Positions 22,419 through 61,496 of a stretch of 64,000 nucleotides of DNA are shown here, in pieces. The position numbers and the translations under genes were made by a program. Below the pieces are notes generated by a model that saw only the letters and a list, made by a program, of their open reading frames with translations, searched no databases and was not told the DNA's origin. The stretch lies in NCBI RefSeq assembly GCF_988243305.1, contig NZ_OZ547136.1; one strand, given 5' to 3'. Each line of letters begins with the position of its first letter. The first letter of the stretch is position 1.

Positions 22419-22505
22419 TGTATATAGCGCGGCGATTTTTTTGATACCGATTTGCATTTCATTTGATACCGCTGAAAAACGCCGATACGCAACTTATTTG
22501 ATACT
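22419..22505. repeat. prophage right-end terminal region with three putative transposase-binding repeats
   Basis: TGTATATAGCGCGG... then TTTGATACCG at ~22440 and ~22462 and TTTGATACT at ~22497; mirrored by GGTATCAAA repeats at the other end. Confidence 0.6.
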
Positions 22506-22550
22506 AAATCGGCGCTTTTCTTTTGAGTTTTAGAATGAGTTTTTAAGCGT

Positions 22551-23288
22551 TCATTCACTCTCTTTCAAACCAGTTTTAACTGTTTGTGGTTTTGGGTAAG
22601 GCTGGACTTTGAATAGCTTTGTGTTAAGGCGTTTTCTGGCTCTCTTGTCCAGAAACCGGATGTAACGAAACTGACGGAATTTATGAACACTGGCTCTGTC
22701 GATATTAGCCCGCAGATGTTCACCTCGCTGTCCTCCTCGTTTGATTGCATTCTTGCAAATCTCGTGATACCACTCGCCATCAAGTTCATAGAATGTTGTT
22801 TCATGACTGCCTACATAATCAAAATTGCTTGCCTGGTACACGACACCAAGACAGCCACAACGCTCATCTGCAAACGACTGAACCCACTGCACCTGCGGAT
22901 AAAGTTGTCTGATTAGTTTGAGCGCGTAACTGATTGCCCTTGATTCGGAGTTTCTCGGCATACAGTCATGCAGCCATAACCGGTTAAGCTCCATATATTC
23001 GCGGTTCTGCGTGCCAGTTACGACGCGTGCACCATTGTTTGGATTAAGGGCATAACCCCATTGCATTACGCCAACCAGCTCCCGTTCTGAAAATATGCCC
23101 AGATGAAGGTAGGAATTATTTACGAAACGATGGCTGTAATGTTTATTGACGACGACCAGCCGGGCCAGCCAGCAACTTATTGTCTCAACCCGTAACTCAC
23201 GGGAGCCATAACCGACGATATTGTCGTTATAGTGAATAAGTTCAGGCGTGCTGATGATACGGGATGTAACTTGCTTTCTGTTCCCCAC
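22551..23288 (-). CDS. mom: Mom-like DNA modification protein (position and com linkage; start uncertain)
   Basis: Last gene before right end, immediately downstream of and overlapping a Com-like zinc-finger gene; proposed GTG start with AAGGAA SD 8 nt upstream; ORF frame extends to 23483. Confidence 0.6.
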
Positions 23289-23442
23289 GACAGGATTTCC
23301 TTGTGTATGTGGGGTGCTCTGTGGCGCTCTGAGATGTGATTTGATTGAGGGTTTTACAGCGCGGACATTTAACTTCCAGATAACTGAAGCTGGCTCGTGC
23401 CAGTAGCTTGTTACAATGTCGGCACCGTATGTTTCGATACAT
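23242..23442 (-). CDS. com: Com-like zinc-finger translational activator of mom
   Basis: [33 protein letters not shown]... matches Mu Com pattern IRCxxCNKLL...CPRCK; AGGAGG SD upstream; ORF frame extends to 23487. Confidence 0.75.
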
Positions 23443-23489
23443 GGCCGCATAACCTCCTGCTTTGTTGTTGATATCTTTATCACTCAATC

Positions 23490-23506
23490 GATCGACAAAA
23501 ACGATC
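23490..23506 (-). promoter_or_regulatory. pair of GATC (Dam) sites upstream of com-mom
   Basis: Two GATC 13 bp apart within CAATCGATCGACAAAAACGATCGATT; by analogy to the Dam/OxyR-controlled Mu mom promoter. Confidence 0.3.
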
Positions 23507-23698
23507 GATTTGATTTATTTAATTGATACAACAAATAACACGAAATGTCATTAGCGAAAATTTATGAGTTTGATCACTAATTTTAAACGGTGCTGTAACG
23601 CATAAGTGCTGAATGATTGTACATTTGAATACCGCAAAGCAAACAAATCAACTAATTTATAGAAGTCAATTGGTTAATTGCCAGCGTAAGAGGCTGCT

Positions 23699-60233: not shown

Positions 60234-60234
60234 A

Positions 60235-60483
60235 TCATGACGCCTTTCTCATATAGCTCTTAACCTGGTATCGACTGGGCCAGATTTCTTCAGGCGATAC
60301 CCCAAGAGCATCAGCAATTATTTGCTGATACGGTCGGCAAGGAGTACGTAATACGCTTTTCAGCGAATCCCTGCTGTAACCAGCCTTTAAAGATAAAGAG
60401 CGCAGTGATAAGCCAGCCATGTGTAAGCGCGCCTTGATGATTTCAGGCGGCCAATCGTGATCTGAAACTTCTCTTCTACTCAT
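60235..60483 (-). CDS. ner: Ner-like DNA-binding regulator
   Basis: 82-aa ORF with ...QIIADALGVSPEEIWPSRY resembling Mu Ner/Nlp family. Confidence 0.8.
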   Translation of the reverse strand: MSRREVSDHDWPPEIIKARLHMAGLSLRSLSLKAGYSRDSLKSVLRTPCRPYQQIIADALGVSPEEIWPSRYQVKSYMRKAS

Positions 60484-60650
60484 ACTTCCTCTATTCTAAA
60501 AAGTTACCCGCGCGGATATTCGTGCGGATATCTGTACGGGTAAATAATAGAACAAACAAAAGAACCAAATCAAGGTATTTTGTTCTTTTTATTCTTTGCG
60601 GTGTTTTTGTTATTAATATCAATAAGATAAATAAAAAGGAACCTGAGAGC
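60484..60650. promoter_or_regulatory. c-ner divergent promoter/operator region
   Basis: 167-bp intergenic region between divergent c and ner; contains IR TTACCCG...CGGGTAA (60504..60543) around direct repeats GCGGATATT/GCGGATATC. Confidence 0.5.
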
Positions 60651-61235
60651 ATGAACATGAAAAACAGTTCTTTTCTCGACGAAGGAAAAGAACCAGTGAT
60701 CGAACGGATTTTTCGTCTTGCAGAGCGTTACAAATCGAGAAGTGAGGCGGCTAGAGCATGGGGAATAAACGTTCAGACATTGCAGAACTACTACAAAAGG
60801 AGAAACAATCAGCCGCCACCACAACCAAGAAAGCACCATCTCCAGAACATTGCAGAAAGAGAACATGTATCTATGGAGTGGCTGGTCAATGGTTATGGTG
60901 ATGAGCCAAGCATGAAAAAAGAACCAATTGAACAAACAAAAAGAACAAAAAAACAAAGAATTGATGATAGTGATTCCATCATCATGAGGGCGTGGGACTC
61001 GCTAACTTCATCTGAACAAGAGATTTTGTCCAACTTATTGATCAGAAAAGGGGCCGAACTACTAACCGTTTTGCTTGATACAGATATTCAAAAACTGCAC
61101 TCATTGAGCGGAGTCAAAAGAGCACTAGCATTGAGTCTACAAGAGTTACCCGATGATACTGTAAGAGAGATTTATGAAGAATGTGAAGCTAAGGTTAATC
61201 ATTTAAATGTAACCCAGAAAAAGGCTGGTGCGTAA
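60651..61235 (+). CDS. c: prophage repressor c (Mu c-like)
   Basis: Start at internal MNMKNSSFLDEGKEPVIERI; HTH-like EAARAWGINVQTLQNYYKR; divergent from ner; ORF-track start 60522 would leave no room for operators. Confidence 0.7.
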   Translation: MNMKNSSFLDEGKEPVIERIFRLAERYKSRSEAARAWGINVQTLQNYYKRRNNQPPPQPRKHHLQNIAEREHVSMEWLVNGYGDEPSMKKEPIEQTKRTKKQRIDDSDSIIMRAWDSLTSSEQEILSNLLIRKGAELLTVLLDTDIQKLHSLSGVKRALALSLQELPDDTVREIYEECEAKVNHLNVTQKKAGA

Positions 61236-61321
61236 GGGAGTGGTGCAATTTTTGTGCTGTAGTACACTCCTTTAAAGACAATCTGGAGAAAAACGTTTTA
61301 AGCCTTTTTAAGCGTCAATCC

Positions 61322-61496
61322 GTAGTATCAAAAGTTTTGCCGATTTTAGAATAAACGATTAATTATTGCACAATCGGTATCAAATAGACTTTAAGCGCTC
61401 ATCCAGACATCACCTGTTTTATTTCAGTATCTTACAGGTGATTTCACCTCCTTTCACTAAAACCCTCGTTGGTATCAAATGATTCACCTGGTTACA
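61322..61496. repeat. prophage left-end terminal region with three putative transposase-binding repeats
   Basis: GTATCAAA at ~61322, ~61376 and ~61472, terminus reads (minus strand) TGTAACCAGGTGAATCATTTGATACC; palindrome TCACCTGT-N16-ACAGGTGA at ~61410-61441. Confidence 0.6.

Follow-up and report, generated by a model that had tools for sequence, protein, structure and literature searches.

A Mu-like prophage within dcyD

The window analysed here is a stretch of 64,000 nucleotides from contig NZ_OZ547136.1, of which positions 1–21000 are ordinary Escherichia coli core chromosome. Positions 22423–61496 are occupied by a Mu-like transposable prophage of 39,074 bp with genes mostly on the minus strand. 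The element lies inside dcyD, the host gene for D-cysteine desulfhydrase, and is a member of the known and common Sp18 group of E. coli O157 Sakai Mu-like prophages. In a map of the open reading frames (ORFs) of 20–64 kb, minus-strand genes are densely packed from ~61.2 kb down to 22.5 kb, and the G+C content reaches 55–60% in the late region, versus ~50% in the flanks. The best explanation for the region is an intact Sp18-group prophage that entered dcyD by DDE transposition, to which we assign a probability of roughly 90%. The borders are marked by the following features.

22419–22422: left copy of the 4-bp target-site duplication TGTA, host dcyD sequence
61497–61500: right copy of the 4-bp target-site duplication TGTA, host dcyD sequence

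The left flank, comprising tcyN, tcyL and the 3' part of dcyD, matches the E. coli chromosome as far as 22422, and the right flank, with the 5' part of dcyD and tcyJ, matches it from 61497 onward. With 22423–61500 removed, the flanks re-join into 2,923 nt that align to the uninterrupted locus without gaps and with 3 mismatches. The restored DcyD of 328 amino acids (aa) is identical to WP_001128215.1, and the insertion point falls after nucleotide 700 of the 987 in the gene. The empty site in NZ_AP022298.1 carries one TGTA only, with flank alignments that share exactly 4 bp, and in strain BEC1-S17-ESBL-09 the left- and right-flank alignments overlap by 4 bp. An earlier reading of the same letters (hereafter, the original prediction) had proposed a complete ~39-kb Mu-like prophage inside dcyD, to be checked by aligning the flanks to an uninterrupted allele. 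That alignment bears the proposal out in all but its first coordinate. As DcyD is restored and the 4-bp duplication is clean, the element proper spans 22423–61496, and positions 22419–22422, where its start had been placed, are the left TGTA copy.

The prediction that the element has neither an integrase nor a tRNA attachment site also held. The sole recombinase in the element is a Gin-type invertase, ARAGORN finds no tRNA at the borders or elsewhere in 20000–64000, and Rfam at its gathering thresholds returned nothing across the 40-kb region. These results bear on a different origin for the arrangement, namely an assembly artefact at the junctions, or arrival by homologous or site-specific recombination rather than transposition. 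Such an origin would be in keeping with the absence of both dcyD junctions from all 5,426 complete E. coli genomes searched, a point that lends it no specific support. Against this, both junctions fall precisely at conserved element termini, the target duplication is clean, dcyD is exactly restored, and the borders carry no att-type repeat in addition to lacking an integrase and a tRNA. We regard this alternative as highly improbable.

Gene content and intactness

Genes were assigned using PHROG, Pfam, NCBIfam and tblastn with Mu proteins, and no module lacks a PHROG or Pfam assignment. NCBIfam gave only sub-threshold matches for c, ner, A, B and Mor, and none for Mom or for the esterase described below. 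The assignments are as follows, with percentages referring to amino acid identity.

22551–23288, minus strand: mom, DNA adenine modification, 245 aa; 75% to Mu Mom; phrog_1384 (E=2.8e-83)
23242–23442, minus strand: com, translational activator of mom, 66 aa; 45% to Mu Com; phrog_6417, phrog_13819
26917–27489, minus strand: gin-type serine DNA invertase, 190 aa; 74% to Mu Gin; phrog_125 (E=1.9e-94)
28533–29414, minus strand: tail fibre S, 293 aa in the present orientation; 47.5% to the N-terminal 191 aa of Mu S
29414–34547, minus strand: baseplate/tail genes gp48, gp47, gp46, gp45, P and N; 34–58% to Mu homologues
34534–36591, minus strand: tape measure
36719–37198, minus strand: tail assembly
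37213–37578, minus strand: tail tube
37587–39089, minus strand: sheath, 50% to Mu; phrog_973, phrog_185 and phrog_165 across 34534–39089
39089–43475, minus strand: block with gp38–gp35 homologues and the next three genes; phrog_371 and phrog_328
40753–41700, minus strand: major head T; 67% to Mu T
41700–42824, minus strand: protease/scaffold I
43002–43475, minus strand: G
43597–44928, minus strand: F
44912–46501, minus strand: portal, 58% to Mu
46501–48165, minus strand: large terminase (TerL), 72% to Mu; phrog_2, phrog_113 and phrog_220 across 43597–49005
48424–49005, minus strand: gp27; Mu gp27–gp30 homologues 57–72% identical across 43597–49005
49008–50986, minus strand: gp26, gp25 (DUF2730), TraR/DksA zinc finger, Rz1, Rz and lysozyme (50486–50986)
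51058–51480, minus strand: single Mor/C-family late activator; 39.7% to Mu C, 27.8% to Mor; phrog_532 across 51058–52063
51551–52063, minus strand: GemA/gp16; 47% to Mu GemA
52128–57125, minus strand: accessory early region with gp11/gp12 homologues (gp11 69% to Mu), a D5-like regulator and small ORFs
52128–52475, plus strand: ORF in the accessory early region
55245–55775, minus strand: gam; 57% to Mu Gam
56637–56891, minus strand: kil-like gene
57128–58060, minus strand: transposition ATPase B; 48% to MuB; phrog_296
58143–60233, minus strand: DDE transposase A; phrog_310 (E=1e-211), Pfam Mu-transpos_C (3.5e-17) and HTH_Tnp_Mu_1 (1.6e-5)
60235–60483, minus strand: ner; 43% to Mu Ner
60484–60650: AT-rich divergent control region of the immunity switch
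60651–61235, plus strand: repressor c; phrog_3037 (E=2.3e-59), no match to Mu c

The intactness of these genes was assessed by mapping the annotated coding sequences (CDS) of the closest relatives to the window by tblastn, with HH35 as the source for late genes and O157:H7 TX 265-1 for early ones. Each of the 55 reference CDS aligns over its entire length and is uninterrupted by stops or frameshifts; identity is 96–100% for most. The mom product is 100% identical to the HH35 CDS, and the ner and c products are both 100% identical to those of TX 265-1. The original prediction that all modules are intact is thereby confirmed, with no stop or frameshift in the essential genes. Its list of Mu genes is essentially right, except that there is one Mor/C gene only and that four non-Mu genes are found between gin and com.

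Several details of individual genes support the assignments. The com gene overlaps the start of mom, as in Mu, and gp48, gp47, gp46, gp45, P and N follow the Mu order, all at full length. In the transposase, the catalytic core residues D375 and E415 were placed by alignment to Rous sarcoma virus integrase; a phmmer search of A against PDB sequences retrieved retroviral integrase cores only, and not MuA. The lysozyme N-terminus begins MPKLPAPLRKKLIALVLAGAGTFTIATHYTGYWEGKE and comprises an LRKK charged patch and a Gly/Ala-rich hydrophobic stretch, followed by the catalytic region, from which we predict a signal-anchor-release (SAR) endolysin.

Element ends and target-site duplication

The two ends of the element are organized as follows.

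22423–22520, plus strand: mom-side (Mu attR-like) end, starting 5'-TATAGCGCGG; inward TTGATACY repeats at offsets 18, 40 and 75
61324–61496, minus strand: c-side (Mu attL-like) end, finishing ...GGTTACA-3'; inward TTGATACY repeats at offsets 18, 113 and 165

The motif TTGATACY has 11 matches in the window versus ~2.7 expected by chance, and 6 of the 11 are within 175 bp of the element ends, facing inward. These repeats are candidate transposase-binding sites, with an asymmetric layout that resembles R1–R3/L1–L3 of Mu.

Both junctions were compared in 12 copies, comprising the window and 11 others: AST46, NJS001, TX 265-1, HH35, JE86-ST05, Sakai Sp18, 95NR1 (a longer copy), OkiPb01685, O103:H2 20151001, O121 WL1277 and M3. 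No two of the 12 insertions share a locus, and every one is flanked by an exact 4-bp direct repeat of its own; the loci of the other 11 include ypdB, cah, prophage tail and head genes, a diguanylate cyclase gene, sorM and flgL. Duplications of 5 or 6 bp were considered and rejected, the adjacent outer base matching on both sides in none of the 12 copies. In JE86-ST05, a single genome, the element is present at least twice, at citF and at ybfB/rhs. The presence of the same element at different loci with different 4-bp duplications, and with no integrase, indicates insertion by transposition, as had been predicted.

All 12 copies have the same mom-side terminus, which begins with 5'-TA. The c-side terminus is CA-3' in nine copies and TA-3' in the other three, which are thus of the form TA...TA. 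The window copy has the canonical ...CA-3' at its c end and 5'-TA at its mom end, and so departs from the terminal 5'-TG...CA-3' arrangement. According to PMC8705779, Mu duplicates 5 bp of target and B3 duplicates 6 bp; every Mu or B3-like phage described by that time had conserved TG–CA ends, and TA–TA ends were reported as new in Leptospira. We found no report of a 4-bp duplication in Mu-like or Sp18 phages in the limited collection of literature searched. The 4-bp duplication and TA terminus are firmly supported as a family-wide trait of the Sp18 group that departs from Mu, and their consistency points to a possible variant of Mu-type strand transfer. It is conceivable, and we suggest it tentatively as the less favoured view, that the Sp18 group is a mechanistically distinct branch of the Mu type, with a divergent A, a 4-nt stagger and TA or CA at the transferred 3' end; no account of such a branch turned up in the literature searched.

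Invertible fibre segment

The region adjoining the gin-type gene contains the following features.

27555–28897: invertible fibre segment, ~1.3 kb
27554–27928, plus strand: alternative fibre C-terminus Sv', within the invertible segment
27980–28501, plus strand: fibre assembly gene, the sole assembly gene in the segment

The segment includes the 3' part of the fibre gene S and is bounded by inverted repeats at 27560–27708 and 28744–28892 (86 nt at 94% plus 50 nt at 84%). At the outer edges of the repeats are gix-like 26-mers (27555–27580 and 28872–28897) with 4–5 mismatches to Mu gixL. In AST46 the stretch equivalent to 27551–28902 runs in the opposite orientation, between flanks that are collinear with the window. 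The invertible region of Sp18 has been described as containing genes distinct from those of Mu (PMC2669165).

The orientation of the segment in the window is common to Sakai, TX 265-1, NJS001, HH35 and JE86-ST05. In this orientation the assembly gene converges on S rather than following it.

Cargo module and tRNA-like sequence

Four genes without a Mu counterpart occupy 24160–26831 and 23732–23992, between gin and com, and two further features lie within the late region.

23732–23992, plus strand: 86-aa hypothetical ORF in the cargo; no family match
24160–24414, minus strand: DUF826 (RefSeq name in HH35)
24450–24632, minus strand: DUF1378 (RefSeq name in HH35); phrog_311 and phrog_494 across 24160–24632
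24777–26831, minus strand: 684-aa SASA-family (sialate O-acetylesterase, NanS-p-like) protein; Pfam SASA (1.8e-12) and DUF6645 (2.9e-67)
43516–43595, plus strand: tRNA-like sequence in the 124-nt F–G spacer, on the strand opposite to the phage genes
48165–48413, minus strand: extra 82-aa ORF between gp27 and the large terminase gene; absent from O157-type copies

The 684-aa protein, in which the DUF6645 domain is C-terminal, is predicted to be a NanS-p-like esterase. The esterase of Shiga toxin (Stx)-converting lambdoid phages, annotated as 'SASA family carbohydrate esterase' in two of the records listed, is ~65% identical to it over 86% of its length. In comparison with the Stx-phage NanS-p, the first ~93 residues of the 684-aa protein are not covered, the alignments beginning at residue 94 or later. 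The genomic setting also differs, the gene being placed between gin and com of a Mu-type genome here and downstream of stx in the Stx phages. The DUF1378/DUF826 pair follows the esterase in Stx phages too.

The tRNA-like sequence scores 31 bits against the Rfam tRNA family (gathering score 29) in a local scan only and is not reported by ARAGORN. Its acceptor, D and T arms are present, and its anticodon loop is abnormal. It is labelled 'tRNA-OTHER' by RefSeq/PGAP in HH35 and JE86, and its conservation is 99–100% in four relatives and 76% in Sakai. In recent RefSeq records Mom goes by the name 'tRNA(Gly)-dependent adenine aminoacyltransferase'; any connection between this name and the element's own tRNA-like sequence is pure speculation. 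The 82-aa ORF looks like an insertion with a partial duplication, judging from the resemblance of its last 31 aa to the C-terminus of gp27.

Relatives and mosaic structure

In a megablast search against phage records, the element matches regions annotated as 'inserted Bacteriophage Mu-like phage' in two Stx-converting phages, with 72% coverage and 91% identity. Of 5,426 complete E. coli genomes, 247 contain sequence matching the 2.5 kb at the c end, 89 of them with at least 80% query cover. Examples of the Sp18 group are Phi804-3 and the Mu-like inserts in the Stx phages LC727895 and LC727881. The element resembles members of this group in its termini, its 4-bp duplication and its gene order, including the esterase–DUF1378–DUF826 cargo, the short invertible segment and the F–G spacer, and is 79–98% identical in nucleotide sequence along most of its length. 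Sp18-like phages have been described at variable sites, also inside Stx phages, in clonal complex 119 Shiga toxin-producing E. coli and in O157 (PMC10132054, PMC7430833).

The affinities of the element differ along its length. In the early region, protein identities to the copies in TX 265-1 and NJS001 are 98–100%, and the segment at 55.1–61.5 kb is 97.7–99.4% identical to O157-type copies. The late region is closest (98–100%) to a second subtype represented by HH35, JE86-ST05, PO06021 and 600029, and sequence identity to these four is 98% over 24–48.9 kb, the stretch that holds the cargo, fibre, tail and head genes. Between the two, 52.0–52.6 kb (52036–52563, including a plus-strand 115-aa ORF) gave no blastn alignment to NJS001, TX 265-1 or Sakai, and the HH35 CDS annotated in the equivalent interval have no tblastn match in the window. 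On these alignments the element is a recombinant, with an O157-type early and immunity region and HH35-type late genes. It differs from Sakai Sp18 in that the latter has another repressor/immunity region, its alignment ending at 60818, from Sp18-type copies in carrying the extra 82-aa ORF, and from the group as a whole in its dcyD site, which is absent among the 5,426 complete genomes.

Activity, proposed life cycle and significance

The anatomy of the element, the intactness of its genes, the duplication and the restoration of dcyD were observed directly, and we infer regulation, transposition chemistry and packaging from Mu and from published work on Sp18. In such a scheme the divergent repressor c would hold the ner–A–B early operon off. 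On failure of repression, transposase A would bind the three repeated sites at each end, ATPase B would deliver target DNA to it, and the 3'-OH ends would attack the target with a 4-nt stagger, the phage replicating by repeated transposition. The single Mor/C-type activator would then turn on the lysis, head and tail genes. Headful packaging would presumably proceed from the c end with host flanks attached, and the SAR-type lysozyme with Rz/Rz1 would lyse the cell. Inversion of the 1.3-kb segment by Gin would exchange fibre tips, and Com/Mom would account for DNA modification.

A number of points weigh against this interpretation. Its present-day activity is argued from Mu and from published Sp18 work. 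The element is a mosaic of two subtypes, and its mom-side terminus has TA in place of the canonical TG. At the sequence level nothing supports a shared operator and enhancer of the Mu kind, as the repressor resembles neither Mu c, which has no tblastn match in the window at E<1e-3, nor the N-terminus of A, the first 150 aa of which gave E=0.61 only in a BLASTP-level comparison. With a single Mor/C activator, the three-stage cascade of Mu may not apply; the middle/late two-activator steps have perhaps collapsed into one. Finally, the 180-nt G–I spacer, located 18.6 kb in from the c end (total length of the element, 39.1 kb), has only short collinear matches of 8–16 nt to the gyrase-site region of Mu.

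An alternative is that the prophage is cryptic and immobile, whole in structure but inactive through silencing or through point mutations, incompatible mosaic parts or the TA terminus. In its favour, the element is a mosaic of two subtypes, and decayed relatives do exist: AST46 is a 10.5-kb remnant, and the fetched JE86-ST05 copy has five CDS flagged as frameshifted, for which decay or long-read sequencing error are both possible. The element also has an 11-bp deletion compared to O157-type copies, 191 bp from the c end (~61305). This deletion, however, falls beyond the stop codon of the repressor gene and short of the innermost repeat, outside all three repeats, and none of the 55 CDS carries a stop or frameshift. 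The TA terminus is compatible with mobility, because it is present in 12 copies at 12 different sites, and c, ner and B are 99.7–100% and A is 98.9% identical to copies found at many loci. Sp18 itself was classed as Mu-like and predicted intact; it showed no induction by mitomycin C and no circularisation, yet its DNA was efficiently (spontaneously) packaged and found in particles (PMC2669165). We therefore consider a cryptic prophage unlikely and favour an intact Sp18-group element. The suggestion in the original prediction that the element may still be inducible is to be qualified by the failure of mitomycin C to induce Sp18.

The insertion knocks out the host D-cysteine desulfhydrase, and the downstream cystine importer genes tcyL and tcyN are probably affected too. 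The host strain carries what is likely to be an active mutator phage, together with a sialate esterase gene of the Stx-phage kind. The element itself is routine, Sp18-type phages being common in E. coli, and represents a new mosaic member at a site not seen in the complete genomes. The 4-bp duplication and TA terminus, consistent over 12 insertions, provide a precise rule for delimiting Sp18-type prophages. Should the group indeed form a distinct mechanistic branch, the copy in the window would be a ready and intact example with which to test it.

Comparison with Mu and related phages

Thirty-nine proteins of Mu (Muvirus mu, NC_000929) have tblastn matches that are collinear along the window from ner to mom, with 28–75% amino acid identity; B, Gam, gp11, TerL, portal, T, sheath, Gin and Mom are among them, at the values listed above. 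Also as in Mu, a divergent c/ner switch is found at one end and com–mom at the other, three inward repeats resembling transposase sites are present at each end, and gix-like sites flank the invertible segment. In the broad sense the element is Mu-like, with a Mu-type DDE transposase adjoining a MuB-like AAA+ ATPase, Mu gene order, many unrelated insertion sites and asymmetric end repeats.

The differences from Mu are nonetheless extensive. Transposase A aligns to MuA only over the C-terminal 144 aa, at 31%. One Mor/C gene is present, versus two in Mu, and no second activator was found in the element. The target duplication is 4 bp rather than 5 bp, the mom end is TA rather than TG, and the end sequences themselves are unlike those of Mu. 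In Mu the invertible segment measures 3 kb and has two assembly genes; here it measures 1.3 kb and has one. F and G, which overlap in Mu, are separated by the 124-nt spacer. The esterase cargo, the tRNA-like element and the TraR-type zinc finger are further additions.

The common gene order, and com/mom, gin and gam as hallmarks, would suggest Mu itself or a close Muvirus such as D108 or SfMu. In megablast searches against phage records, however, nucleotide similarity to D108 and SfMu is confined to ~600 bp at ~71%. The genome-wide similarity and the 5-bp duplication that characterise Muvirus are lacking, as is a c recognisable by tblastn with that of Mu. Together with the different ends, the divergence of A, the unmatched c and the extra cargo genes, this leads us to reject a Muvirus identity, the probability of which is practically nil. 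The original prediction had proposed comparing the A, B, c and major head proteins with Mu, D108 and SfMu-type phages; the collinear homology to Mu stands, and the group to which it belongs is instead that of Sp18, with which it shares its termini, the 4-bp duplication, the cargo module and high nucleotide identity.

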